The position numbers were made by a program, and so were the translations under genes. This document shows positions 334 through 55,674 of a stretch of 64,000 nt of DNA, piece by piece (position 1 is the stretch's first letter; the number at the start of each line of letters is the position of its first letter). Source of the DNA: Torpedo marmorata (taxonomy: Eukaryota); NCBI GenBank assembly GCA_977017645.1, contig OZ360232.1:78058001-78122000 (forward strand). Direction: 5' to 3'. The notes under the pieces are model-generated. The model saw nothing but the letters and a program-made list of their open reading frames with translations, was not told where the DNA came from and ran no database searches.

Positions 334-1354
334 AATTTAGTTCTATTTTTATGGTTGTAATAGAATCTAAACTTTCATTCAGGAGTTGTTATTGGAGTTG
401 TACTTGATATAAAACCCAAAACTAATCATGAAAAATAAAAAATTAAGAGAGGAAGGTAAACGAGCTAATAAATCCATCTTAGTCTTAAATTTGGTGTTTT
501 AACTTTAGATTTACACAAATTCTCACTTTCTCTCACAATAATTCTGAATGAATCCCACTTTTAGTAACTTTATTCTACAGGTCTATCAACCTTTTTAGCA
601 CTTATTTTATTTCAGGATTTTTCTGATTATTCCATGTTCTTTATTTCCCATCCTCAAACTTTCTCAGCTGCTGCAATGATATGGCCATCTTCTAACCAGG
701 GGATGATCATTATATTATTCTTTGGTTTGTGAGTCTGTATTTTTGGCTTCGGATTTGGATTTTGTTTTGCATTCAGCATATGCTTTTTGCATTGATAATT
801 ACTTTTGTTTTTTTGCACAATAAAAGAAATAGGCAAAGAAGTCAGTTGTTTCACAGAGTTGAGAACAAGCTAAAGGGGTGATATAATTAGGTGGTGTTGG
901 TTTTCAAAAGTAGTAACAATTCTCGTAATACCTGGTGCATAACTGCAGATTCAAGCACACATTTCTTGAATCTGTATTCATGCTGAACTTTTCCTAATTC
1001 TGCCAAATATGCTATTTGTTAGACAGGTATCAATTTAAGCAAGCTCATCATCAATAGTGGTTATTGCTGCACTTCATATTGGCTCAGTGTATAGATCACA
1101 GGATGTGGCATGATGATCATATAATCATAGAAAATTTATAAGGAGAAGGAGACCATGAGTCTCATTATGTCCATTGGTTGAAAATGAGCTGCTCAATCTA
1201 ATTCCACCTTACAGTAATAGATCTACAGCCCTGCAGCTCACAACCATTTGAGGACATATCTTTGTATATTTTAAATTTGATGAGGTTGTTTGTCCCTATC
1301 ATGCTTTCTGCGTGAAAAGAGTTTCCTTGTCTTCAAAGTTAAAAAAAATTTCAA

Positions 1355-1909
1355 AGTTCAGATTTATTGTCAGAGTATTTACACGACATCATATACAGCC
1401 CTGAGATTCTGTCTGGGTCAGGCAGAATTTCTACTTATCGGTAGTGCAAAAAAATGTACTCAAGAAAAAATATGTATACAAAAGAGAGAAATGTGAACAA
1501 AGAAATAAATGTTAACAAACTGACTGTGCAATACAGAAAATAAATATTCAATAATAAATAATGTGCAAAGTAAGAGTCCTTTAATGAGTCTCTGATTGAG
1601 TTTGTTGTTTGGGAATCTGATGGTGAAGGGGTAGCAACTGTTCCTGAACCTGGTGGTAAGAATCCTGTGGCACCTATACCTGTTTCCTGATGGTGGCAGC
1701 GAGAACAGAGCATGTCCTGGGTGGTGTGGATCCTTGATGATTGCTGTTGCTCTCTAATGGCAACGGTCCATGTAGATTTTCTCAATGGTGGGGAGAGTTT
1801 TGCCTCTGATGTACTAGGCTGCATTCACTACCTTTTGCAGGGCTTTCCACTCAGAGGTATTGGTGCCCCCATACCAGGCTGTGATGCAGTCGGTCAGCAC
1901 ACTTTCCAC
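1355..1909 (-). mobile_element. Rex1/Babar-type LINE 3' fragment
   Basis: Near-copy of 52601-53425; minus strand ends TGACAATAAATCTGAAC; decayed ORF end (IKDPHHP motif). Confidence 0.8.
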
Positions 1910-9178: not shown

Positions 9179-9789
9179 CTACCAGGCTCTGATCCCATGC
9201 AATGTAGAAACTCCAGTATTCTGATGGATTTGAGTCTGCATTGCATTGCTCAAGTCATTGACTGTGAAATTCATATTCATAAAGCTTCCTGCTGCTGTCG
9301 AGGGGGGCACGGCTTGTACACTGGGATAGTTACAGCTGTAGTTGGCAGGAGTGGCTGCACCAGTGTAGTTGGTATAGTTTGCATAAGTGCCATAAGCGTA
9401 AGGACTGATATTCATGTTGTACGGCGTGTTATAAGGCGAAGACTCTCCCAGGCACGGCTTTCCATCTCTGACCAGCACTGGCACGGCGATTCTCCTCGGA
9501 GGCGGGAGGCCCACCATTTCCAGGGATTTGTCTTGGCGTTGCCTTTTACATTTGTATCTGCGATTTTGGAACCAGATTTTCACCTGGGTGGACGTGAGCT
9601 TCAGTATGTTTGCCAAATGGTCCCTCTCGGGTGCAGAGAGATATTTCTGCTGTTTGAACCGCCTTTCCAGTTCGTAGACTTGCGCCTGAGAGAATAGGAC
9701 GCGTGGTTTTCTTCTCCGTCGCCTGGGCCGCTCGGCTTCGTCTGATTTCTGCTCCTCTTTCTCTAAGTTAACTTCCAGCATCCGACATT
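9179..9789 (-). CDS. nkx2-5: NK2 homeobox 5, coding exon 2 (homeodomain, NK2-specific domain, Tyr-rich region, GIRAW end)
   Basis: [59 protein letters not shown] (Tyr54 of NK2 class), [22 protein letters not shown], terminal GIRAW then TAG; acceptor ttcccatgtAG at 9791-9790; phase matches exon 1. Confidence 0.95.
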
Positions 9790-9987
9790 CTACATGGGAA
9801 AGCAGGGCCGTTAGTAATAAACCGCCAATACGTTTCACTCGCTCACACTCTTTAATTCAGAAACCACCTCTCTCAAGAACTTACCAACTTCGAGCAATAT
9901 AGACCAAGCTGTCGGTACAACTCCTGATGCTTATCGGGAGTGTGCAAAAGGCACATTGCCCGGAGTCCCAACTACAGCATTTCATAA

Positions 9988-10100
9988 ATCTCGATAAAGG
10001 GTCCCGACCCGAAACGTTGCCTATTTATACCCATGGATGCTGCGGAGTCCCGCCAGCCTCTCTGTTTGTTCACGATTCCAGCATCTACAATTTTTGTGTT
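9988..10100 (+). mobile_element. Penelope-like terminal repeat remnant in the nkx2-5 intron
   Basis: GATAAAGGGTCCCGACCCGAAACGTTG...CATGGATGCTGC...TTCCAGCATCT, same family as other remnants in the window. Confidence 0.6.
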
Positions 10101-11516
10101 CCTTTAGTAAATGTCTATGTTCTGCACCAGTGGAAGGCCAGAAGAGCCCAGGAATTAGAAATAGACAGCATATCACTCGAGTCTTAAGATCTCCAGCACA
10201 GGTTGTACTGAATTTGCCTCGCTTTGTTTCCTATGAGTTATTTTACTGAAACATGAAAAGATGTAAACACTGCTAATATCGAAATACATCCAGAACCCCT
10301 CCATCAAATGGTTCGTTAATGAGAATAGATCAGAGAACTGCGCTTGTCAAGGTCAACACCAGCGCGTTGAAAAATGGCAGGAAATGGGAGATTTCCGCCT
10401 TCTGATTTTTCCTGGTTTGCTACAAATACTGGTCCAGTGCCCATTATTACCGTGTTTTATAAAGACAGACGTCATTCGCGGATTGTGCGTTTTGGGGTGG
10501 GGTAAAGGGAGAATAACTCTTGTAATTCAGTTTTGTAAAACGTACTATTTCACACAGTATTGTTCCAAATGCAGTGTTTGGGGAAGTGTGTAAAATATTA
10601 ATTGGCCGCCTGAAAATAAAATATGCATTGAAATCTTCCTTTTTAAAGTAGAATTGATTTACCGTCAGTCAAATTAAACGCTTATTAGTATTTGGATATG
10701 CTACTAAAGAATATCCAATACAAGTCATCGTATTAATGTTCAGTTTGTTAAAACTGCAAATGGGGGTGAAACTCGTTTCATAAAACAATTGCAATATAGA
10801 ATTGGAAATCCAAATATTTAGGTCGCAAAAAAGTGATGTTCAGTTCTAGATTTTTTTTTAAATGGTCGGAAGTCGACTAAGGTCATAGAAAATAAAAAAA
10901 ACCCAAATGAAATAAATAGAATTAACACAAGCTTTCCCGGAGTTATTGGCAAATCAGAGAACGGGCAGAGGACCACTAAACGCTTAAAACAAATCTTGTC
11001 TACGAATGTGTCTTGCACAAGTTTTCAAAACTAAAAGTAACGTTAACACGAACGCAATAAAAAAGCCTGTAAAAATCAAAACTCACAAATGCATAAACAC
11101 TCTTTTTCATATTTCAGATCAGCTAAAAATAACTAATTATTTTGAATGGTTGTGTAATTTATAGCCCATAACAAACCATGGTTACCGTGAATAATGATGT
11201 AGTTTGATGACTAATATGTCTCCAAATATTACATAAACACAGAGCGTTAGTGGAAACCAATTTAAATCCCTAGTCCTCCAATAGTAAGTGTATAGTCTTT
11301 TAAAAAAACATTATAGGTATTTCTATGTTGTAAAAAAGTGTTATTGTTTTATTTTCCTGCTGTGTAGAGAGTTATTGTAAAAAATGTTTATTTTCAACCA
11401 TGACTTCCTTTTATTCAGTCAAGTTTATTTGTGAGATTCGGGCGATCTAAAACATGACTTCAGGTACATTATGCAAACAGGATTGTAAATGGAATAAATT
11501 ATGTTTCCTTTCTTAC

Positions 11517-11835
11517 CCTTATCGTTTTTTTCTGTCGGTCCGCTGCTTGACTTCGCTTCACTGTTGCTGATTTCCAAATAATTATTTACATATGAAGTGC
11601 TTGAATAGTTGGGATTGTTTTTGCAAGAATTCATTTTAGGCAGTGGCTCGTCGTAGGCGGATAGGGACGGGGTTTCACTGTAGTGTTGTTTGGTCCGCTC
11701 TAACATGCACGAAGCAGGGGAGGGAGGCGAGTCCAGTCCTGCAGAGACTCCCAGTGAGGCCATGTCAGGATGGTGCTGAAGATTTAAAATATCCCTCACT
11801 GAGAAAGGAGTCGAAGTCGCTGCACCGGCAAACAT
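11517..11835 (-). CDS. nkx2-5: NK2 homeobox 5, coding exon 1 (TN/eh1 domain)
   Basis: MFAGAATSTPFSVRDILNL tinman domain and SCML motif; donor G|GTAAGA at 11516 gives a phase-1 intron; spliced CDS is 930 nt = 309 aa + stop. Confidence 0.93.
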
Positions 11836-16100: not shown

Positions 16101-16357
16101 TCGCAAAATTGTGCGGACACAAGGAAAAGAAAACAACCAAAAAAGCTTTTAGGCTGTATATTTAGAAAGCTTCCAGTGTCTTCCACACCAGATTAGCTTC
16201 CACCCTGATCATTGCCCTTTGAGGGGTGCGCTTGGACAGTTCCAGGTCCCCTGTTGAGGGGAGTAATCCTCCCCTTGCCAGTTTTTTTTTCAAGATTCCA
16301 CGCATAACGTAGATAATATTAGTCTATTTTTTAAGATAATAGGCAGAAATTTTTGAT

Positions 16358-16439
16358 TTGCCTTGCAGCAGGCAAAAAGAAATTTCATGGAATATGACAC
16401 TGTCTTATTACTATGACAATAAATTGAATCTTGAATCTT
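16358..16439 (+). mobile_element. Isolated retroelement 3' tail (Rex1/Babar-type), extreme 5' truncation
   Basis: GCCTTGCAGCAGGCAAAAAGAAATTTCATGGAATATGACACTGTCTTATTACTATGACAATAAATTGAATCTTGAATCTT matches the reverse complement of 28502-28590. Confidence 0.85.
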
Positions 16440-18100: not shown

Positions 18101-19512
18101 TCTTTTAGTTTGTATCTCGTCTTCCAATGCCTTCTGTGTCTTCGTTTATTAAAAGCAGACCGCATAATCTGGGCGTAGTATATCAATATTGGCAGCAGTT
18201 AGCTCAATTCGCTTGAAACTTGTAAATCTTTAAGCTAATTGATCAAAAAGACGCCATCTCCCTTGCTCGCATTTATTTCGCGTTCCTAAATTCGCCTTTT
18301 TAATGCTTTCCCTGCCAACGTTTTTCTAACAGGTAACTCTGGGCGTTGTTCTCACTTTTGAAGTTTGAAGCATCCGTGAGCTGTTGTTATGGACGCCCGT
18401 CAAAAAAAAAAGCAAGCAGCCCCCTTGGGTATTTATCTCAGTGTTGGAATACTTTATCATTCTTTCCATTCAAAAAGAGTTTGCATTTGTCAACTGTCAA
18501 ACATATTTTGAGGAGAATTCTTGATTCAAAATGGTTGGGTATTCCAATGGTCAAGGGAGGAGGGGGTGTACGCAAGTGATTTCTTGAGAATGGAACACTT
18601 TTGACACCGTACGGATACATATATTTATCAGGAAAAAAAACTGAAATGTCCTGCTTAAAATTAAAATAAAATGCCTGGATTCATGCGTCAACTCGTTGGA
18701 ACAGCCTGTGTTGTAAACGGCACGGATTCCAGCTCGAGAGAAAAAAAATGACTTTGGAGATTGACATTAATTCAAAACAAACGCGCCATTTTTATGACCG
18801 TTTCCATCATTTACCATTTGGCTCCAGCATTCTGTATAGTGTTTATAGTGTTCACGTATTGGAGCTGGACGATGCGAGTCCAATGTTTGGCCGTGTGATA
18901 AATGTCGGTTGGCACTTTCAACAACTGTATCAACAACTGGGCTCCTTTGGCGCAATAATTACTGAGAAAGCAAACAGTCGTTGAAGTGTTATTGCGCTGC
19001 TTTTTGTCAAACTGATTGATGCTCTCCCTATTAAATGCGATGGATTTGGTCCATTTCCGGGTCAGTTTCACCATGGCCGCTTCCCAGAGAAATGAATATG
19101 ACGCGATAAAAACTACAGTGTGAGAACTATCTTTTTGACCTGTTATTAACCTGTTTATTGCGTTCGCGCGTTACATGTAACTAGATCATTTTCTTCACGG
19201 AGGCCCTGGCTAGGTAATTACATTTGCGAAAACAACACCGGAATCAACATTGGTGACCTTGGTGCGTGTGCCTTGGGATGGGAAGAGGGCGGTGGTGAGA
19301 AATGTATTCTCTGCAAAAGCTTCCTTAAAAACATTGTGCAAGGAACTAGATATTCGGAGCAAACTCAAAATCCAGAAATGTACCCCGATATTTCGGACAT
19401 TCAGAAATCACGAAATTGCTAATTTATGGGAACTGCGAGAATAGAAATAATATGGACTCATTTCCACGGGGTATTACGCATGAGAGTATGCGCTCATTTA
19501 GGTTTGATTTTA

Positions 19513-19728
19513 AAAGGTTCCATTATTGTCACTACATTTAGAATGTAACATACATGAAATTCTTTAATTTTTGTCTAACGTAAGGCTACTTTGTCTAGCG
19601 CCCCTCATAGAAACCTACAGCACCTGGTGTTACTAAGTGCTCTCCCCTCCAAGTACTGACCAGTCTTGTACCTGCTTAGCTTCCGAGATCAGACAATCCC
19701 AGTCGTATTCAGGCTATTGGTGTTGTCA
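19513..19728 (-). mobile_element. 5S rRNA-derived SINE (SINE3-type): 5S head (~19728-19611) plus LINE-like tail
   Basis: Minus strand TAGCCTGAATACG...GTCTGATCTCGGAAGCTAAGCAGG...CTGGTCAGTACTTGGAGGGGAGA...CCAGGTGCTGTAGGTTT aligns to vertebrate 5S rRNA; followed by GCCTT...AATTTCATG...TGACAATAATGGAACCTT. Confidence 0.85.
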
Positions 19729-20479
19729 TTTATGCAATTTATATGGTCAGGATATCCCCGTTGCCATTGCTCGCGAGGAATAAAATATTATAAAATAACA
19801 GGGATATATATTTCAGGTAAGACAGAGTACATGAAGTTATTGTAGCGTTGATCGATGAGAATACAGATTTGGAAATGCAGTTTAACGGGTCGTCCTGCAA
19901 CCAGTTAATGGTTAATTGATGTTGAAGAAGGACATTTACTATTTAAGATGTTTGCAAATGCTCCTCAACTTTGCAATTATAAACAGTTACTTCCTGTACT
20001 TTATCTTTGTGCATTTTACAAAATCGAGATGTATCTGGTAAATTCTGTTACTGACAAATGCATAAGTTCTGGTAACTTGGAGGATCTTTGCTTCACAAAT
20101 TCATTTTCTTCCCTTGCTGAGAAAACCTAAAGTATTTACAGATCACAAGCAGATTGACAAGCAGGATCGGACTGAATGGCTGCTAATCCTCTTTAAAAAG
20201 CTGGCAAATAAAAGAGTCATGTGCTGACCATCCACCAATAATCTTTCCTGAAATGGATAGTAACGGTTGAAATGTTCCCGTGTTTACAATTGGCTAATGC
20301 AACAGTTTAAAAACGACATCCCGCATCATGCAGATCAAAAGAGATTAATAATTGATTTGGGATTAGAATGACATCAATACTTAAATTAAAGTATAAAGTA
20401 AGGCAAATAAAGTCATCTCAATGCTCGTGTTACGATACAGCTTTGAAGTCAGCCTGAGGTAAATTTATAATCAATGCTA

Positions 20480-25878: not shown

Positions 25879-26683
25879 GAGAGTGTATGGATTTAAAAGT
25901 GTGTTTCCACACATCGATTCAGGAATGGTAATCTGATGCCACACAATACAACCAAAACCTAGACCAAGATTTCATTGTGTTTTTTAAACAATGTGTGTAC
26001 GCAAGAGGCAGGAAAGTGATGCCTTGGCATAGCTCCACCAAACTCAAAGTTGCATTCATCTCTCCTTGTGTAGCGCAGTGGGGGGGGGGGGGGGGGAGGG
26101 GGGGTCCTCTGAACATCACATCGATAACCACGAATAAACTTTCGTTTACGGGTTCAGACTCCGTTGCCAATGACGAATTGTCGGGGTGCAGACAGGGAAA
26201 CAGATTCTAAAACCTTAGAGAAATCTTCTCGAGATTCTAAAACTTGTTCGGGAAGAGGGGAACTAAAAGGTTACTTAAACAATCTTTTACAATGCAATAC
26301 ACGGTATATTTTCATAATGTAGTCGTTTTACAAGGTAACTGATATACTGACGAGTTATTTATTAAAAAAAACGTTCACAGCATTCCTTACAATCCTCTCT
26401 GTGATAAATATCGATTTCCACTATCACTTAATGTTTTTTTTTTGGTTCAAATTAATCGTGTATTTGCCAAATATTAACGAATTGATCTGTAGTCGTATAT
26501 TATACAATTCATATCCAAATACTCTGCTTATACCTGTATCTTGTTTTGCGATGGTAACCACCACTTACAGGCAAACATTCCGCGCTGCCCACCCTTCCCG
26601 TTTCCTCCGCGAGATTGACTAAAAATAAATGGATTTTCACTCTTCAGCCGCGGTGGGGTTATTTTGGGCCACAATATTCTCTT

Positions 26684-26840
26684 TCAGAACACAGCCCGGG
26701 AGTAGAGCCAGTCGGCTCAAATCCCGGGCTGTGCTCTGATGCACCAGTCGGCTCAAATCCCGGGCTGTGCTCTGATGCACCAGTCGGCTCAAATCCCGGG
26801 CTGTGCTCTGATACACCAGTCGGCTCAAATCCCGGGCTAT
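26684..26840. repeat. Hairpin followed by 36-bp tandem repeat (about 3.7 copies)
   Basis: Unit CCAGTCGGCTCAAATCCCGGGCTGTGCTCTGATGCA at 26708, 26744, 26780 and 26816 (partial); 26684-26739 is near-palindromic. Confidence 0.92.
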
Positions 26841-27390: not shown

Positions 27391-29935
27391 TAAAAAAAAA
27401 ATCTCTTTATTAATTCCATAAAATCATGGATATAACAGTTCATTCACTATATACGTTTACAGAAAAAAGCAAAGAAAAGCATTATCACATGTTCCATTAA
27501 TCCATCCATAACAGAGTATACATTACAGATATATATCATTTTTTTCTTTACAATTTAGTATTATAATACCAATAGGTATAAAAAGAACCAAGCCACAAAA
27601 AAAAGATAATATAGTAATTTCATCATAATACATTTTTTTTAATAAAAGCTAAAGCGATCTAAACTAGCCTACCACCTACCCCCACCCCAGAATTGCACTG
27701 ACCTGTAGAAATAATATAACTTCAAATCATGAGGAATCATAAACTCTGATAATAATCGATAAAGGAACCCCAAATATTAGTAAATTTTAGGTTTAATTTA
27801 ATATTTGAACATCTAATCTTTTCTAATGTTAAATAGGACATTAAACTTGATAGCCAATCTTCATAAATAGGAGGATTACAATCCTTCTATTTTAGCAAGA
27901 TCTGTTGCCTTGCAACCAGAGAAGAAAAAGCAATCACATGGAAAAATTTAACTAAAGGGTGGTCTCTGTTAATTATGTCATTAATTGGTCATATAAACAT
28001 TATAAGAATGAATATTTTACCTAAATTTTTGTATGTATTCCAAGCACTTCCAGTATTTCTCCCTAAAGTATTTTTTGATCAAATAGACTCTTTAATTTCG
28101 TCTTTTATTTGGAATGGTAAAAGACCAAGAGTAAGAAATGAAGTACTACAAAATGACAAACCACAGGGTGGTTTTGCTTTACCTAATTTCAGGAATTATT
28201 ATTGGGCTGCTAACATTAGATTTATTAATATTTGGATACATTTTAAGAATTATCAAGAAAGATTTAAATGGATGAAATCAGAAATGAAGGTTATAGGTAA
28301 ACATTCGTTAGTATCCATATTAGGAATGCCTTCACCCTTTAAATATTCCAAAATTTCTATAACAAGATAGTTAAACAAACATTAAAAATATGGTTCCAAT
28401 TCAGAAAAGTAAATAATTTCCTTAATTTCTTGCTTGATAGTACAATAAATTTCAATACCTTTTTTACCCCAGCTAGTGGGGATAGAGGGTCCCAGATTTG
28501 GCAAGATTCAAGATTCAAGATTCAATTTATTGTTACAGCAATAAGACAGTGTCATATACCACAAAATTTCTTTTTGCCTGCTGCAAGGCAGACAGATTCG
28601 CCATCGGCAGAAATTGCCTAAGCGCCTCTAACATTCCTTACAGTCAGAGAAAGAGAAGCAAAAGAGAGTCCCCCCAGAGTCACCGAGTGTCCATAGATTC
28701 ACCTCCAGCGCTTCCGCAGCCACATAGAGTCCAGTTCAAACGATCGGCATCCCGAGCTACAGATCTGAACCTCCAACACGGTCAGGTCGCCCTCGGCACC
28801 CCCTCACATCCCAGTTCCGATACCTGGTACTCCTCCAGCCAGTTCGAGCCAACCTCCAGCAGTCCGCAGCCCATCGTGAGTCCCCCGACAGCAGTCTCCA
28901 GCAGCCCACAGCCTCCGTGGGTTCCTCGCCTCGAGTCGCCAGCAGCCCGCCGCATGCACTGGTCCTTCAGCCTCAGAGCCCCTCACCGGTCCGCCGCTGT
29001 GCTCACCGTCCCGTGGGTCGTCTCCTCCGCTTCTCCTTCTCAGACGGGGGTGATCTTCCCGTCCACTGGTGCCCTGCTCCAGACCCCTGCTTCCCCGGAG
29101 TCTGCAGCCCCTCATGGCTGCTGCCGATTAATAGGCGCTGCCATCTTGGGCGCAGACCCCGCGGTCGCGGGATCTCAAATAAAACCACCGTCGGCTCCTT
29201 TAACGGGCATTTCAAAGCCCGTGCAGAACCGATGGCAGTTGACTGGGCGGCTGGACCCCGCGGGAGCGTTGTATCTCCGCTCCCACGCTCCCCGCGAGTC
29301 CGCACCAGCGGCAGCGCTGCCGCTACAGCAGCTCCGGCAGCACCACCATCTTCTGTATATATGTTCATTTAAAAACTTGTTTATAGATTCTAATTTTATT
29401 ACTTTTGAACAGTTGGTTAATAAGTATAACTTATCTAGAAATAATTATTTTAGATACTTTCAAGTTTGGAATTTTATAAATTCCTTGAGATTGGAGTTTC
29501 CTTTAGATTTAAAGTTAGTAATCATAGAAAAGGTTTTTACTATCACTTCTGATATACCAAAACCATTGTCAGTATTTTATAACCTTTTAAAAGAAAATGT
29601 GGTACAGCATGTGGATAAAATAAAGGAGGCTTGGGAAAGAGATTTTTTAGAAGTTTTTTTACCTTTAGTGTGGTCCAATATTTTGGACCGTATCCATACC
29701 TCTTCATTATGTGCAAGACATAATTTAATTCAATTCAAAGTAGTTCACAGAACTCATTACTCAAAATCTTTACTGGCTAAATTTTCATCAAATATATCAT
29801 CTATGTGTGATAGATGTAATGTTCATGAAGGTACCCTAAGTTAGTTAGATTTTGGAACAAAATTTTTTGTACTCTTTCTTTGGTTTTAGCTACTCAATTA
29901 GATCCAAATCCATTTATAGCAATATTTGGTATAAA
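27391..29935 (-). mobile_element. L1-clade LINE with 5' inversion (twin priming) and 17-bp TSD
   Basis: TSD TGAAATTCAGCAGTCTT at 27374-27390 and 29936-29952; 27391-27939 is ORF2 C-terminus plus 3'UTR on minus; 27940-29935 is the upstream ORF2 part (MNILPKFLY...GGFALPNFRNYYWA...CDRC) on plus. Confidence 0.88.
28502..29353 (-). mobile_element. GC-rich non-autonomous retroelement nested in the L1
   Basis: Interrupts L1 ORF2 between QIWQD and ICSFKNLF; minus strand starts GAAGATGG and ends AACAATAAATT(GAATCTT)3; no recognisable protein domain. Confidence 0.8.
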
Positions 29936-32917: not shown

Positions 32918-33425
32918 CAGTCCCCAGCAGCCCGCAGCCTGTGTGAGTCCCTCAGCCGCGTCCCCAGCAGCCCGCAGCCTGGCGTGAGTACTTCAGCTGC
33001 CAGTCCCCAGCAGCCCGCAGCCTGGTGTGAGTCTTTAGGCCGCCAGTCTCCAGCAGCCCGCAGCCTGGTGTGAGTCCTTAGGCCGCCAGTCTCCAGCAGC
33101 CCGCAGCCTGGTGTGAGTCCTTCAGCCGCCAGTCCCCAGCAGCCCGCAGCCTGTGTGAGTCCCTCAGCCGCCAGTCCCCAGCAGCCCGCAGCCTGGTGTG
33201 AGTCCTTCAGCTGCCAGTCCCCAGCAGCCCGCAGCCTGGTGTGAGTCCTTCAGCCGCCAGTCCCCAGCAGCCCGCAGCCTGTGTGAGTACTTCAGCTGCC
33301 AGTCTCCAGCAGCCCGCAGCCTGGTGTGAGTCCTTCAGCCGCCAGTCTCCAGCAGCCCGCAGCCTGGTGTGAGTCCTTCAGCCGCCAGTCCCCAGCAGCC
33401 CGCAGCCTGTGTGAGTCCTTCCAGC
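32918..33425. repeat. 42-43 bp minisatellite, about 12 copies
   Basis: Unit CAGTCCCCAGCAGCCCGCAGCCTGGTGTGAGTCCTTCAGCCGC (e.g. 33001, 33044). Confidence 0.95.
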
Positions 33426-34163
33426 TGTTGAGCCCCTCTCTGGTCTGCTGTCGTGACCACCTTCTCTTTAGGGTCATCTCCCAGACTTCTCCTCACGCTC
33501 TGTTGCCCTGTGCCGGTTCCTTGAGCCCGCAGCCCTTCTGATTCACTGCCAATCACGGGCACTGCCATCTTGGGCAGGAACCTCTGTGATTTAGCAGATG
33601 TTAAAAAACCACTGCCTGCCCCTCCTTCAAGCTGTGTAAAACCAGAATGGGGCTGTTGGCATCATGACCGTTCATGCTTCTTTGCCCACTCCCTCACATC
33701 CCAGTTCTAACAAATCACTGTAACATTTCTGACTAAAAGAAAATCCTTTGTTTTTTTTCATTCATTCTCTTAGTATTTGTAACTTTCTGCCTGACGATAC
33801 CTGATGCAAGATTTATACCCAAAATTCCACCCCCCCCCCAGCCACGGATGCTGTTGAGTTCCTCCAGCATTTTGCTGTTTGCTTCAGATTCCATCATTGC
33901 TCTTGTGCTCAAAATGCAGGTTGAATGTATTTTGTAATATTCACATATATCTCCATTTTATTATGCATATATGTCACTATTACATCTTACATTCATTCCT
34001 GTTCAAGTCACAACCAATATAAGGGCTACTCCATTTTTTGACTCAATTTAGTTTTGTCAGTGTTCTATTTATTTCTATTCTGTGCTCCATGATCCATGGA
34101 CAGTTTTAAAAAGTAAATCATTGCATTGATAACTAAAATTGAGCACAATACTGGGATGCAACA

Positions 34164-39493: not shown

Positions 39494-42400
39494 TTACAGG
39501 TCAAGGCGATCCGGTGGTTTGGCTCGCCTTTGTGACCTGCGCAGTACCCTGGGTGCGGGTTGTGGTGCAGGGGGTACCCTGGGTGCGGGTTGTGGTGCAG
39601 GGGAAGATGGCAAGGCCGTCGCCTCCTCCTGTGGTGCTGGGTGAGATGGTAGGATTGTGGGTTCTATCGAGGGTGCCTGGTCTGACGTTGTAGAAGAGGG
39701 AATAGGGAGGGGCCGCAGCGAGTGGTCTTGCCCGTCGAGAGGTTCCTCCGGCGCTCCCGCGGGCGCCAGGTCCCGAATTGAGACCGTGTCCTCTCTCCCA
39801 TCCGGGAAGACCATGTAGGCGTACTGCGGATTAGCGTGCGCTAACTGCACCCTCTGGACCGCGGGCTCATATTTGCTGCTCCGGAGGTGGTTGCGGAGCA
39901 GCACCGGCCCCGGGGATGTCAGCCAGGCAGGCAGGGCGGTTCCGGTGTTCGACCTCCTGGAGAAGGAGAAAAATCTCTCATGAGGCGTTACATTGGTGGC
40001 TGTGCACAGTAAGGACCGTATCGAATGGAGGGCTTCGGGGAGAACATCTTGCCAGCGGGAAACCGGCAGTCCCCTGGACTTGAGAGCCAGGAGCGCCGCC
40101 TTCCAGACTGTGGCGTTCTCCCTTTCCACCTGTCCATTACCTCGGGGGTTGTATGCGGTGGTCCTACTGGTGGCGATGCCCCGGGTCAGCAGGTACTGGC
40201 GCAGCTCCTCACTCATAAAAGCTGATCCCCGGTCGCTATGAATGTAGTTCGGGTAGCCGAACAGCGTAAATACCTGGCGAAGAGCTTTTATGGTTGAGGC
40301 AGCCGAAGTGTCGGGGCAGGGAATGGCGAAGGGGAACCGCGAGTACTCGTCAATAATGTTCAGGAAGTACACATTGCGGTTCGTGGAGGGGAGGGGCCCC
40401 TTGAAGTCAATGCTGAGACGTTCAAAGGGGCGAGTGGCTTTGATCAGCTGTGCCTTGTCGGGGCGGTAGAATTGGGGTTTGCACTCCGCGCAAACCCGGC
40501 AACTGCTGATCATTGTCCTGACCTCTTCCAGGGAGTATGGCAGGTTCTGTGACTTCACGAAGTGAAAGAGCCTGGTAATTCCTGGGTGGCATAGGTCGTC
40601 ATGTAGGGCGTGTAATCGGTCGACCTGCGCGGTGGCGCATGATCCCCGGGATAGAGCATCGGAGGGCTCATTGAGCTTCCCGGGCCGGTACATGATGTCG
40701 TAATTGTAGGTGGAGAGCTCTATTCTCCACCTCATGATCTTGTCATTTTTGATCTTACCCCGCTGCTGATTGTTGAACATGAATGCCACAGAGCGTTGAT
40801 CTGTCAGCAGGGTAAAATGCTTACCGGCGAGATAGTGCCTCCAATGCCTGATGGCTTCCACTATGGCCTGGGCTTCCTTCTCCACCGCTGAGTGCCGAAT
40901 TTCGGGGCCCTGGAGGGTTCGGGAGAAAAATGCCACCGGCCTTCCCGCCTGGTTGAGGGTAGCAGCCAGCGCGAAGTCCGATGCGTCACTCTCCACCTGG
41001 AAAGGTGTCTCCTCATCCACTGCGTGCATTGTTGCTCGCGCAATGTCCCCTTTTATAAGGTCGAACGCCTTACGTGCCTCCGAAGCAAGGGGAAATGCAG
41101 TGGATTTCACAAGGGGTCGGGCCTTATCCGCATAATTTGGGACCCATTGGGCATAATAGGAAAAGAACCCGAGGCATAGTTTAAGGGCTCTGGGATTGGT
41201 GGGGAGCGGAAGTTCCAGCAGGGGCCGCATGCGTTCGGGGTCTGGTCCAATTACCCCGTTCTCGACCACATACCCCAAAATAGCGAGGCGAGTGGTACCA
41301 AACACGCATTTTTCTTTGTTATACGTGAGGTTTAGAGCTTTGGCCGCCTGCAGGAACCTCCGGAGGTTGTTGTCATGGTCCTGACGATCATAACCACAGA
41401 TGGTAATGTCGTCAAGATATGGGAAAGTGGCTTTAAGTTTGTAATGGTCCACAATCCTGTCCATCTCCCGCTGAAAAACAGAAACACCATTAGTAACACC
41501 AAATGGAAGGCGCAGGAATTGGAACAGCCTGCCATCTGCCTCGAACGCGGTGTATGAATGGTCCTCCCGACGGATAGGGAGCTGGTGATATGCCGATTTC
41601 AAGTCGATGGTGGAGAAGAGCCGGTATTGGGCAATTTGGTTCACCATCTCCGCTATCCGTGGTAGCGGGTATGCGTCTAGTAGCGTAAACCTGTTAATGG
41701 TTTGGCTGTAGTCCACCACCATTCTGCTCTTGGCCCCTTTTACTACAACCACCTGGGCTCTCCAGGGACTATTACTCTTCTCTATAATCCCTTCCTGTAG
41801 CAATCTCTGTACCTCCGTCTTGATAAATGCTCTGTCCTCGGCACTGTAACGCCTGCTTTTAGTTTCCACAGGCCTACAGTCCGGGGTCAGGTTCGCAAAC
41901 AATGACGGAGGCGAGATCTTAAGGGTGGAGAGACCACAGGTGGTTTCGGGCGTGCTATCCAGAAACTGGTGGTTGGCCACAGTGATCGCGGGGAGAGGAC
42001 CGTCATACCACATTGTAACACTCTGCAAATGGCTCTGAAAATCCAAACCCAGTAATATCGGCGCACACAAACGGTTCATGACAAACAAGGAAAATTGTCG
42101 GTACTCTGTCCCTTGTACCACAATGTTCACCACACACGCCCCCCGGATGTCTGTTGTGTGGGACCCCGACGCCATGGCCACCCTCTGGCTTACCGGTACG
42201 ATCGTTAGGCCACAGCGTTGAACAGTATCCGGGTGGATAAAGCTCTCAGTGCTGCCAGTGTCGAATAAACACGTTATCTTGTGTCCCTCGACCAGTATGT
42301 CCATCATGGATCTTGTCAGCTGGTGGGGAATGTTCTGGTCGAGGGTGACGGATGCCAAAGTTGGGGTGAGGTCGCCTTGGTCCGAGGTCATTAAAAATGG

Positions 42401-42735
42401 CCGCTCCCGTGGGTTGCACGTGTCGCTGGAGGTCTCTGTACAAAATGGCGGCGCCGGAAGTGCAGGAAGTAACGAGGTACTGCTCTGAGATGGCGGCGCC
42501 GGAAGTGCCAGCATGAAAGATGGCCGCTTCCACTCCTCACACGCGGTCGGCGCCGGAAGTGCCAGTCTGCAAGATGGCCGCTCCCATCTCTCCCATCTAC
42601 TCGGGCCCGCGCGCGGCTTGGAGCGGCAGGCCTTTGCGAAGTGGCCTTTCTTGCCGCAGTTGGAACAAGTCGCGTCGCGGGCCGGGCAGCGTTTCCTCGT
42701 ATGCTTGTCGAGCCCGCAGAAGTAGCACTTCTCGG
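39494..42735 (-). CDS. Gypsy gag(NC)-pol polyprotein, N-terminally truncated
   Basis: 1006-aa ORF with LFDTGS protease, YLDD RT, DAS RNase H, HHCC and DDE integrase; same frame extends upstream through two CCHC knuckles CYFCGLDKHTRKRC and CSNCGKKGHFAKAC. Confidence 0.92.
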
Positions 42736-42898
42736 GCTCGCGATTAACAGCTGCGGCGGTGAGAGTAGCGTCGGTAGCGGTCGGGTCGCGGATAGCGGCG
42801 GCAACAATCGGGTCGCGGGATCGTTCTTGGTCGCCTGGAAGGACAAAGGGATAAACATAGACTGATGAGGGTGGGTGGTGGAGAGGTGGTGTCTATTA

Positions 42899-51725: not shown

Positions 51726-52101
51726 CAGTGGTTTTCAAACTGCCCCCCCTAAACTCACATTCCACCTTAAGCAATCCCTATGCCATAAGTGCTCTGTGAT
51801 TAGTAACGGATTGCTTAAGGTGGTATGTGAGTGGAAAGAAAAAGTTTGAAAACCACTGTTTTAATCGTACCTAATTGACTCGTTATGTGCACGGTTTCAT
51901 AACTCCAAAGGAAATGGGCCAATGACAATTTTTCTCAAGCAAAATATTTCAGTAACAATTGGGTCTAGAGCAGTGGTTCTCAACCTTCCCTTCCCACTCA
52001 CATACCACCTTAAGCAATCCCTTACTAATCACAGAGCACTTATGGTATAGGGATTGCTTAAGGTGGAATGTGAGTTTAGGGGGGCAGTTTGAAAACCACT
52101 G
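51726..52101. mobile_element. Composite hAT (Charlie/MER5-like) MITE
   Basis: Outer TIRs CAGTGGTTTTCAAACTGCCCC, 8-bp TSD ATTTAGAT/ATTTAGAC; two inverted sub-units at 51726-51858 and 51971-52101. Confidence 0.9.
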
Positions 52102-52600
52102 ATTTAGACTATATACTGATGAGGATAGTCAAATAGGAGTGGGAGGATTTTCCTGTGGGCCAGCGCTGGCAAAATGGCCCACGGCGATATCCTCTTTTTT
52201 ATGCGTGGATTGTGCCATATGGAATTAGTCCTTTCACATTAAGGTGGTTCAGTTTGATTTTAACTGCAGTGCCAATAGTGGTGCTGCAGTTGATCTTCAT
52301 GCTCCTGCAGCTGGGATTAGAACTAAGCAGCTCTGCCACCCACCCCCACCACCCCCCACCCCCCCGTCCATGACTCACTATCCAGTGAAAGGCGAAGGAA
52401 AGGCATGAACTATGTATGCATCAACCAGATTGCTGTTAAACTGAAAAAAAAACAGGAAAATTACAATTTGAGAGAGTACTTTGCCAAGCAGAAACATAGA
52501 AAAAGAATCAAATATAGGCCATTCAGTCCCTTGTACCTGTCCTACTTTGCAATAAAATCAAGTTAATCTTTTATCTTGACACCACTTTCTTGTAGGAATC

Positions 52601-53425
52601 TCAGATTTCCGATTTATCGTCAGAGTACATACATGACATCACATACAACCCTGAGATTCCTTTTCCTGCGGGCCAGGCAGAATTACCACTAGTTGGTAGT
52701 GCAAAAAAAACTGTACACAGTGTATACATGTAAACAAATAAAGAACTGTAAACAGATAACGGATGTAAACAAACTGACTGTGCAATACAGAGAGAATAAA
52801 AAAGAAAATCAATAAAGTGCACAAGTAAGAGTCCTTAAATGAGTCTCTGATTGAGTTTGTCGTTGAGCAGTCTGATGGTGGAGGGGTAGCAGCTGTTCCT
52901 GAACCTGGTGGTGCAAGTCTTTGTGGCACATATATCTCTTTCCTGATGGCAGCAGTGAGAATAGAGCGTGTGCTGGGTGGTGAGGGTCTTTGATGATTGC
53001 TGCTGCTCTCCGACGGCAGTGTTCCCTGTAGATGTACTCAATAGTGGGGAGGGTTTTGCCTGTGATGTCCTGGGCTGTGTCCACTACCTTTTGGAGGGCT
53101 TTCCACTCAGGGGTATTGGTGTCCCCATACCAGACCGTGATGCAGCCGGTCAGCACACTTTCCACCACACCTCTGTAGAAATTTGCCAGGGTTTCTGGTG
53201 TCATACCAAACCTCCGCAAACTCCTGAGGAAGTAGAGGCGCCGACGTGCTTTCTTCACGATGCCAATGGTGTGTTGGGTCCAGGAAAGATCCTCCGAGAT
53301 AGTGACTCCCAAGAACTTAAATTTGCTTACCCTCTCCACCTCTGATCCCCCAATGATCACTGGATTGTATACCTCTGGTTTTACTTTCGTGAAGTCAACA
53401 ATCAGCTCCTTAGTTTTGGTGACAT
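52601..53425 (-). mobile_element. Rex1/Babar-type LINE 3' fragment
   Basis: VERVSKFKFLGVTISEDLSW...KKARRRLYFLR..FYRGVVESVLT..IKDPHHP; tail TGACGATAAATCGGAAATCTGA. Confidence 0.9.
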
Positions 53426-53567
53426 TCCTTTCCTTTCCTCATATCCTTTAATATATAAAAACAAGAGTGAGAGTGGGAGAGTGTGAAGAGAGAGGTAAGA
53501 AATAAGACGAATTGGCCCTAAAATATTAATGTAACAAATACATGGGGATGTTGATAATTGCTATATG

Positions 53568-53705: not shown

Positions 53706-54340
53706 TTGGTGATTAATACGCATACCAGTCGATTTAGGCAGGAGAGGTGCCCGTTTTATTTGGCCTGCAGCAAATTGCCAACCAGGCAGAAATAGTTTTG
53801 GATGCAAAAAGCAGTTAATAAAATAACTTTCACTAAATGGAATTGCTATATATTTTGTTTATAAAAAAATTCCCATTAAGTGGCAATATAGAAATGTCTG
53901 TAACAAGAGCGAAGAACATAATTAGCATGTAAAAGTCAACTTGTGAGAATTGACTAAGTTAAAAGAGAATGATTGATCTAGACAGAGAACAAAGATCTTC
54001 CTGGTAACAATATGAAGGGAATAAAAACGGGTGTGTGCTGATAGTCAAAATATCAACTTCCAGGAAACCATGCAAGTCATGAGATTGAAAGAACGTCCAA
54101 AGAATAAACAGATGAAATGAATACCTATTACCAAGTATGTTTGTATTCTGGATTTGCAGTAAGCTGCAGCTTTTGATCATCAAGGTAAGGAATTAGAAGC
54201 AAATTTCAGATTTTCTCTACACCTTGTCTGATATTGACCAATTTATCAATCATCTAAAAGAAAATATTTATACATTGTAGCCAACCAATGATTTGCAAGA
54301 AATAATTTCCCACGGCAATTGGAAATGTTGAATTAGTAGT

Positions 54341-55674
54341 GTGGGCTGCCTCAACGACTACCGCCCAGTAGCACTAACTTCTACTGTGATGAAATGCTTT
54401 GAGAGGCTGGTCATGGCCAGAATTAACACATACCTAAGCAAAGATCTGGACCCACTGCAATTCGCCTATCGCCACAATCGCTCCACAGCAGATGCAATAT
54501 CGCTGGCTCTCCACTCAGCTCTGGATCACCTCGAAAACAGCAATTCATACATAAGGCTGCTCTTCATCGACTACAGCTCGGCCTTCAATACCATTATTCC
54601 CTCAGTGCTGGTCAAGAAGTTACAAACTCTAGGACTCTGTACCCCCCTCTGCAACTGGATCCTTGACTTTCTCATTGGAAGACCACAGTCAGTACGAATT
54701 GGAAACAACGTCTCCTCCTCACTGATTATCAACACAGGTGCACCCCAAGGATGCGTGCTTAGTCCACTGCTCTACTCATTATACACTCATAACTGTGTGG
54801 CCAGGCACAATTCCAATGACATCTACAAGTTTGCCGATGACACCACAGCTGTCGGCAGAATCACAAACGGCAATGAGGAAGCGTACAGGAGGGAGATAGA
54901 TCAGCTCGTTGAATGGTGTAATGGCAACAACCTTGAGCTCAACGTCAGCAAAAACAAGGAGATGATTGTGGACTTCAGGAGGAAGCCAGGGGAACACGAC
55001 CCAGTCCTCATCGAGGGCTCAGTCGTGGAGAGGGTCAAGAACTTCAAATTCCTGGGTGTCAACATCTCCGAGGATCTGTCCTGGAGCATCCACGTTGATG
55101 CAATCACAAAGAAGGCTCGTCAGCGGCTATACTTTGTGAGGTGTCTGTGGAGATTCGGTATGTCGCCAAAGACTCTCCTAAACTTCTACAGGTGTACTGT
55201 AGAGAGCATTCTGGCTGGTTGCATCACTGCCTGGTATGAAGGCGCCAACTCCCAGGACAAGAGTAAACTCCAGAGGGTTGTTAACTCGGCCTGTGACATC
55301 ACAGCCACCAAACTTCACTCCATCAAGGACATCTACATGAGGCGGTGTCTTAAAAAAGCAGCCTCTATCCTCAAAGACCCCCACCACCCAGGCCATGCCC
55401 TCTTCACTCTGCTTCCATCGGGAAAAGGTACAGGAGCCTAAAGACGAGCACTCAACGGCACAAGGACAGCTTCTTCCCCGCTGCCATCAGATTCCTGAAT
55501 AATCAATGAACCAAAGATACTGCCTTACTTTTCATGCACTATTGTTTATAATTTTTTATAGTAATGTCGTTAGATGGTTAATATGAATGTTAATTGCACT
55601 ATGATGCTGCCGGAAAACACCGGATTTCATGACTTGTTCATGACAATAAATTCTGATTCTGATTCTGATTCTGA
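54341..55674 (+). mobile_element. Rex1/Babar-type LINE, 5'-truncated, with nearly intact RT domain (ORF 54341-55441)
   Basis: [39 protein letters not shown]; apparent frameshift near the C-terminus; tail TGACAATAA(ATTCTG)4. Confidence 0.93.

Follow-up and report, generated by a model that had tools for sequence, protein, structure and literature searches.

A 5S rRNA-headed SINE family with a Rex1-like tail in the Torpedo marmorata genome

A decayed element upstream of an nkx2-5-type gene

The window, the whole stretch of 64,000 nt of Torpedo marmorata DNA that we analysed, contains a homeobox gene that we take, by recognition, to be nkx2-5. A SINE copy lies upstream of this gene on the minus strand, at 19513–19726, and consists of a 116-nt head derived from 5S rRNA followed by a tail. 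The open reading frame of the gene starts at 11835 (minus strand), and 7,678 bp separate it from the 3ʹ end of the SINE, in agreement with the ~7.7 kb given in the initial annotation. The features of this region are listed here, with boxes A and C placed according to the 5S numbering that we assume for them.

9179..11835, minus strand: nkx2-5-type homeobox gene, two coding exons (a neighbour only)
19480..19734, no strand: interval missing at the orthologous locus of organism B, where 19479 is joined to 19735 with 12 letters between
19513..19610, minus strand: SINE tail, homologous over its whole length to the 3ʹ end of the repeat NA1, with a 14-nt and a 7-nt deletion
19611..19726, minus strand: 5S rRNA-derived head (5S positions 5–120), from Rfam and from alignment to the genome's own 5S gene
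19634..19651, minus strand: box C (5S positions 80–97), with a family-wide T84G change and additional private changes in its 3ʹ half
19667..19681, minus strand: Pol III type-1 box A (5S positions 50–64), its first 11 nt the same as in the 5S gene

The Rfam 5S_rRNA model matches the window copy from 19730 to 19612 with a score of 30.1 bits (E 0.035), which is under the gathering score of 38. Younger copies of the same family score 44.7–50.2 bits and genuine 5S genes 115.4 bits. Box A starts with AGCTAAGCAG; box C starts with TGGAGGGGAG and is damaged. The T5 that follows the real 5S gene is a T3 here. On these three points, an intact box A, the sequence of box C and the lack of a clear T4 terminator, the initial annotation was accurate. 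The window copy differs from the family consensus by 4.7% and is more decayed than most copies. Its two tail deletions destroy the hairpins of the tail, and folding of the tail is no better than that of shuffled sequences (z 0.04, as compared with −2.68 for an intact copy). Given the private changes in box C, the two deletions and the loss of folding, the window copy is most likely dead.

The tail deletions, which lie at ~19585 and ~19530 in the window, are found in other copies as well. The 14-nt deletion (loci L002–L028) occurs on at least three head haplotypes; it is present in 18 of 28 copies chosen by the window query, and the other 7 copies, which were unselected, all lack it. The 7-nt deletion is recurrent too, and is seen in copies that do not have the 14-nt one. 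These patterns suggest that hairpins were skipped repeatedly at short direct repeats, rather than a subfamily.

Linkage, copy number and mobility of the family

A search of the genome with the whole element gave 40 scored matches (the best 40 of 2,719 candidates, window copy included), all of which span head and tail (86–100%). Such a search favours full-length matches; hence, head and tail were each searched alone. With a 91-nt query from the tail only, 36 of the 39 non-query loci among the best 40 matches have a 5S head directly upstream, and the other three are 5ʹ-truncated inside the tail. With a 19-nt pattern from the head only, there were 18 matches (control, none), 17 of which continue through the full tail. 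The proposal that the window element belongs to a 5S-headed SINE family is thus strongly supported by copies selected from either end.

Intact copies are ~235–240 nt long, with a 119-nt tail, followed by (ACCTTT)n. The same 5ʹ start is reached by 36 of 77 copies. We compared 95 selected copies and about 10 unselected copies. The median divergence from consensus is 3.2% for unselected copies, a set of 11 that includes the window copy and one spurious 90-nt NA match. A blind sample of 399,900 bases contained 2 SINE copies, which for a genome of 6.2 Gb corresponds to ~31,000 copies, with a 95% range of 3,800–112,000 that reflects a count of two. A second density estimate, 9 copies in 979 kb, corresponds to ~57,000 copies, although the flanks on which it is based are not a random sample; this count leaves out L092 (an NA1 tail) and L065 (a piece of a focal copy), and takes in L115. 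Duplicate loci (L001, L070, L140, L166, L180 and L258) and the loci of the 5S array were removed before counting. The matches are on many contigs and have unrelated flanks. SINEBase, in the definition quoted from PMC3531059, describes a SINE as a short (<1 kb), interspersed, non-tandem repeat with at least 100 copies. The family is short, interspersed and non-tandem, with 2,719 first-look candidates.

The family has been mobile. In organism B, one contig joins the sequences at either side of the window copy and has no SINE, such that the orthologous site is empty; the flanks are ~94% identical, with 44 differences in about 770 aligned letters. Insertion into other repeats is also apparent: 23 of 75 copies split a repeat that has an unsplit homologue among the loci examined, and the joins are mostly near-blunt. 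Flanking repeats of at least 5 nt were found for 4 of 76 copies, with 4.6 expected; target-site duplications are therefore not above chance. Contigs of five other organisms (B–F) match parts of the SINE, in thousands of pieces for B and C. These two organisms have a sister subfamily with letters that are nearer both to 5S and to NA1. We considered an older subfamily within the T. marmorata genome, but the 18 copies with a longer 5ʹ end are otherwise the same as the main family. Two loci 1.4 Mb apart on one contig (L053:513–610 and L167:854–951) contain the same truncated SINE inside the 3ʹ UTR of a family B LINE, and are probably a segmental duplication.

The family consensus is identical to the genome's own 5S gene at 95 of 116 positions. 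A SINE3 element is defined by 60% or more identity to 5S rRNA across 60 nt or longer, together with boxes A, IE and C, and the head of the consensus is within this definition. The fixed junction and the diagnostic substitutions that copies have in common rule out the status of RNA pseudogene and place the family in SINE3. Of the 21 differences from the 5S gene, 13 are in positions 5–49. Expressed per position, 5 of 48 positions differ in 50–97 and 13 of 45 in 5–49 (Fisher p 0.035). This pattern, as far as head sequences can tell, fits a retained Pol III type-1 promoter. Nonetheless, the contrast between the internal control region and the 5ʹ part is modest, and could be due to one remodelling event rather than selection. 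Of 78 copies, just 2 contain an internal T4. In 39, a T4 lies no more than 25 nt from the end of the core and would terminate a transcript that reads through.

The 5ʹ third of the head is more self-complementary than 5S. In the consensus, the 8–9 nt at the start could pair without a mismatch with the 3ʹ strand of 5S helix I, of which they are the reverse complement; the window copy has one mismatch (19726–19719 and 19613–19620, minus strand). Helix III has become an unbulged 8-bp stem. Templated, quasi-palindromic remodelling of the 5ʹ third is possible. The true 5S genes are in a tandem array on another contig (L156–L165; G000 C25, 86.20–86.56 Mb). The spacing in this array is long, in steps of about 3.2–3.8 kb, and its spacer repeat also flanks the SINE copy L029.

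The tail, the NA1 repeat and Rex1-like LINEs

What is the origin of the tail? Its nearest relative is the last ~125 nt of NA1, a GC-rich repeat of ~840 bp that has no ORF. The two align end to end with 77–80% identity (73–81% in 30 NA1-tail loci), and the homology begins at the junction with the head. No reverse transcriptase (RT) frame runs into the tail at any of these 30 loci or at any of 39 SINE-tail loci. NA1 is the older element, with a median divergence of 9–11% from consensus as compared with about 3% for the SINE. The region that the SINE and NA1 have in common extends ~35 nt further 5ʹ than any similarity to a LINE. Because the homology goes beyond any LINE match, the simplest history is that the end of NA1 was captured by a 5S copy, and the tail would then appear to have been acquired second-hand from NA1 rather than copied directly from a LINE.

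The window contains relatives of NA1, and fragments of two LINE families:

1345..1909 (approximate ends), minus strand: 3ʹ fragment of family B, a Rex1-like LINE; closest RT-linked tail
16345..16436, plus strand: NA2 tail, 5ʹ-truncated
28505..29352, minus strand: NA2, a full-length, GC-rich, ORF-less repeat with no RT, sister of the tail donor NA1 (72% identity)
about 52600–53432, minus strand: second fragment of family B, a Rex1-like LINE
54332..55674, plus strand: 3ʹ fragment of family A, a Rex1-like LINE, with RVT_1 and ALKBH8_N; its tail is at background relative to the SINE tail

The initial annotation pointed to a motif order that the SINE tail has in common with tails at 16358, 28502 and 55610, and took these to be tails of LINEs. 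All three do show this order. However, the tails at 16358 and 28502 belong to the ORF-less NA2, which has no RT; they match the last 85 nt of the SINE with z 6.4 and 7.1, respectively, and none of 1,000 shuffles was as good. The tail at 55610 is a true RT-linked tail, that of family A, but its resemblance to the SINE tail is at the level of chance (z −0.2, with 551 of 1,000 shuffles as good).

The NA group is very abundant. In addition to NA1 and NA2, there is a third tail type at L240:5323; the group has two AAGATGGCG-type motifs and Rex1-type tails. Further copies are found at L071–L099 and, in the window, at 33040–33670 (minus strand), and about a dozen copies or fragments are in the 400-kb blind sample. 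The idea that the NA body is a Rex1 5ʹ UTR was rejected on comparisons with the LINE family C: NA has only a 14-nt start motif in common with it, one with which L1-like elements in this genome begin as well. A 5ʹ profile of family C matched an internal NA1 motif weakly (E 0.9–7). ARAGORN found no tRNAs in 16 tail matches outside a 5S or NA context, where a tRNA-headed sister SINE was sought.

Four RT-coding families, A–D, are labelled Rex1-like here from their architecture and from motifs. Full-length copies of 3.1–3.2 kb were recovered for families A, B and C. Their coding region begins near the 5ʹ end, the frames are broken in the copies read, and the elements end in repeats. Family A has RVT_1 and ALKBH8_N domains; a PDB search gave no matches. 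Passages in PMC6274825 and PMC13343379 describe Rex1/Babar elements as having an AP endonuclease and an RT, no ORF1, and a conserved 3ʹ UTR with an oligonucleotide repeat behind it, and families A–C have this architecture.

The last 85 nt of the SINE match the consensus tail of family B with z 5.1 (none of 1,000 shuffles as good), and ten RT-linked B tails score 37–51, where the genomic 99th percentile is 38.5 (9,360 windows). Families A and D are at background, and family C is marginal (z 2.1). The tails of the SINE, NA1, NA2, A and B all have a predicted hairpin that closes directly before CAATAA, and the letters of the stem differ yet still pair; for families C and D, the anchored hairpin is absent from the minimum-energy fold. 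The tails end in CAATAA and a microsatellite. Twelve 3ʹ regions of CR1, L1, RTE and Penelope elements, classed by eye, end otherwise. Mobilization by a Rex1-type RT is likely, given the common hairpin before CAATAA and microsatellite, the match to family B, and the different ends of CR1, L1, RTE and Penelope elements. The lack of regular target-site duplication is a trait of CR1-group elements, and the SINE has both this trait and the microsatellite 3ʹ end, as would a Rex1-partnered SINE. Family A has a divergence of 3.5% and family B of 6.2%, and the SINE is at about 3%. Hence, judged from sequence, B fits as the partner by its tail and A by its age. The proposal that Rex1/Babar RT moved the family is likely, if on indirect grounds, to stand, with the amendment that the immediate source of the tail would be an ORF-less repeat and not a LINE. 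Comparison of 3ʹ ends is divided on the link: the match to B and the hairpins of A and B favour it, the sequences of A and D and the folds of C and D do not.

We propose, with a probability of roughly three in four, that the window element is a decayed copy of an abundant and fairly young SINE, which joins a 5S head to the terminal ~120 nt of an ORF-less repeat of greater age, is likely transcribed by Pol III from the retained internal promoter, and is likely copied in trans by a Rex1-type RT. The family would have arisen once: a 5S cDNA may have switched template onto, or recombined with, NA1 RNA, and the 5S terminator would thereby have been shortened to T3. Source copies would be transcribed by Pol III from boxes A, IE and C, with transcripts ending where a T4 first occurs, be it in the terminal repeat or in the flank. 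The Rex1 ORF protein would then bind the terminal hairpin before CAATAA and prime reverse transcription at a nick. Passages of PMC5135761 treat stem-loop recognition by LINE proteins as established for other SINE/LINE pairs. The window copy itself would be dead and have no role at nkx2-5.

An alternative explanation is that the tail came directly from a rare or extinct autonomous family, Rex1 or another of the CR1 group, that has not been sampled, such that NA1 and the SINE are siblings rather than donor and recipient. An identity of about 78–85% between the SINE and NA1 would allow a common source, the genome searches scored the best 40–150 candidates, and several Rex1-like fragments have other tails or no recognizable tail. 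We nonetheless regard this as unlikely. A direct LINE donor was sought and rejected: searches with the tail only, with NA1 tails and with PF09004, together with the full-length copies of A, B and C, gave no close RT-linked tail. The PF09004 search found the family D tail at 25 of 30 loci and no tail at the other five, and no RT-coding element among families A–D has a tail nearly identical to that of the SINE. No RT frame enters the tail at the 39 SINE-tail and 30 NA1-tail loci, and L053 is a truncated SINE inserted within the family B 3ʹ UTR. The ~35 nt of SINE–NA1 homology that precede any LINE similarity also argue against a direct donor, and the same argument was used for CmiSINE in passages of PMC5499810.

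It is distinctly unlikely that the 120-nt module captured by the 5S head is a miniature Rex1 with two ends, made of the first ~35 nt and the last ~85 nt of such an element. For an older variant of the SINE, positions 117–156 align to the 5ʹ ends of A and B, with only 38, 165 and 101 of 17,760 background windows as good, whereas an L1 5ʹ control in the same comparison was equalled by 4,000 windows; NA1 homology begins at that very point. However, this pairwise comparison was post hoc, and the main consensus gives z 1.0–2.0 only. A blind profile of six A and B 5ʹ ends (E up to 200, 1.39 Mb) found no match among 91 SINE modules, and one among 45 NA1 modules.

Could the window copy have been co-opted as a cis-regulatory element of nkx2-5? 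Its position 7.7 kb upstream would allow this, and exaptation of SINEs as enhancers has precedent, but we consider it highly improbable. The copy is absent in organism B, even though the flanks differ there at only 44 of about 770 letters, and is thus not a conserved nkx2-5 element. It is also more decayed than most copies, and at one SINE per 100–200 kb, some developmental gene would be expected to have a copy within 10 kb. Its proximity to nkx2-5 seems to be a coincidence. Small RNAs joined to LINE ends are known, and the window copy taken alone is under the Rfam cut-off, yet a lone 5S pseudogene beside an unrelated LINE tail, or a set of recurrent one-off 5S/LINE chimeras, is refuted by the single junction and the 21 diagnostic differences from the 5S gene that aligned copies have in common, and by the linkage at 36 of 39 tail-selected and 17 of 18 head-selected loci.

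Relation to known SINEs

RSg-1, the partner LINE in the closest precedent in print, is probably a member of the Rex1 clade. That precedent is OS-SINE1 of salmonids, which is similar to the SINE described here: it has a 5S head and a 3ʹ tail common to a LINE and to sister non-autonomous elements; about 70 bp of its tail are common to RSg-1, according to passages of PMC3747384, PMC5135761 and PMC3272025. In the account of PMC13343379, the vertebrates richest in Rex1 include rays and a salmon. In its listing, OS-SINE1 is a DeuSINE and has a central domain. In contrast, all ~120 nt of non-5S sequence in the T. marmorata SINE align to the end of NA1. Since NA1 homology accounts for all of the non-5S sequence, there would be no room for a Deu body, and we do not file the family as a DeuSINE. 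An independent origin is likely, given that OS-SINE1 is from a different lineage.

SINE3-1 of zebrafish and AmnSINE1 of amniotes likewise have a 5S-derived Pol III head and a LINE-type 3ʹ end, but they have a Deu body and a CR1-type partner, whereas the SINE described here has no body and a Rex1-like tail (passages of PMC3747384 and PMC7245038). In PMC7245038, vertebrate SINE3 families are said to be moved by the CR1 clade. HaSE3 of a moth, Ped-1 and CoeSINE5 resemble our family in that a 5S head sits on the 3ʹ part of a pre-existing non-autonomous element; their parts are RTE-derived and often two-ended, while the donor here is a GC-rich repeat of ~840 bp with a Rex1-like end (passages of PMC3272025 and PMC5786205). 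The chondrichthyan families HE1, SacSINE1 and CmiSINE are from the same broad host group, but have tRNA heads and CR1 or L2 partners, as described in parts of PMC3747384 and PMC5499810. The 3ʹ end of CmiSINE is second-hand from another non-autonomous element, as that of our SINE appears to be (PMC5499810, same passages).

The searchable text of the literature contains no chondrichthyan 5S-headed SINE that we could find, and no assignment of RSg-1 to a clade. SINEs derived from 5S are rare: PMC10946416 puts them at 2.3% of the first SINEBase release, and its 2024 table of 5S-derived elements has no cartilaginous-fish entries. Judged provisionally from these papers, the SINE3 family with its Rex1-type tail is probably uncatalogued. 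The suggestion that the pairing is undescribed in this lineage agrees with the literature for chondrichthyans, but a 5S head with an RSg-1 tail is in print for OS-SINE1. With its tens of thousands of copies, this young family broadens the hosts of 5S-derived SINEs to cartilaginous fishes, and Rex1 probably joins their partners. The one site tested has the element in one organism and lacks it in another, so that copies could serve as presence/absence markers for phylogeny. The apparently second-hand tail supports the exchange of modules between non-autonomous elements as a route of SINE birth. The understanding of how SINEs work is unchanged.

A bolder scheme, which we find doubtful, is a chain of parasites in three tiers. 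Rex1 LINEs would have given rise to a very abundant, undescribed class of ORF-less, GC-rich elements of ~840 bp with Rex1-type starts and ends, and the 120-nt terminal module of these, possibly a two-ended mini-Rex1, would have been captured by a 5S gene that had its 5ʹ third rebuilt into perfect hairpins, kept the promoter and lost the ribosomal 5S fold. If this is true, Rex1 would join RTE, Ingi, Vingi and R2, four clades reported in passages of PMC5786205 to have ORF-less, two-ended derivatives, and the SINE would represent a second, independent birth of a 5S/Rex1 SINE in a Rex1-rich lineage.

Several minor observations concern the window and its repeats. Strong hairpins at 51989–52085 (plus strand) and 26680–26739 (minus strand) have miRNA-like scores far under the Rfam gathering cut-offs, and are likely inverted repeats. 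An open frame of 1,132 aa at 39497–42892 (minus strand) resembles the polyprotein of an LTR retrotransposon. The start A(A/G)ATGGCG is common to families A, B and C, to the NA repeats and probably to L1-like elements (L142–L155, L168, L170, L181–L188, L061, L101 and L118); it resembles the YY1 core that a passage of PMC5135761 reports for the 5ʹ UTR of human L1.
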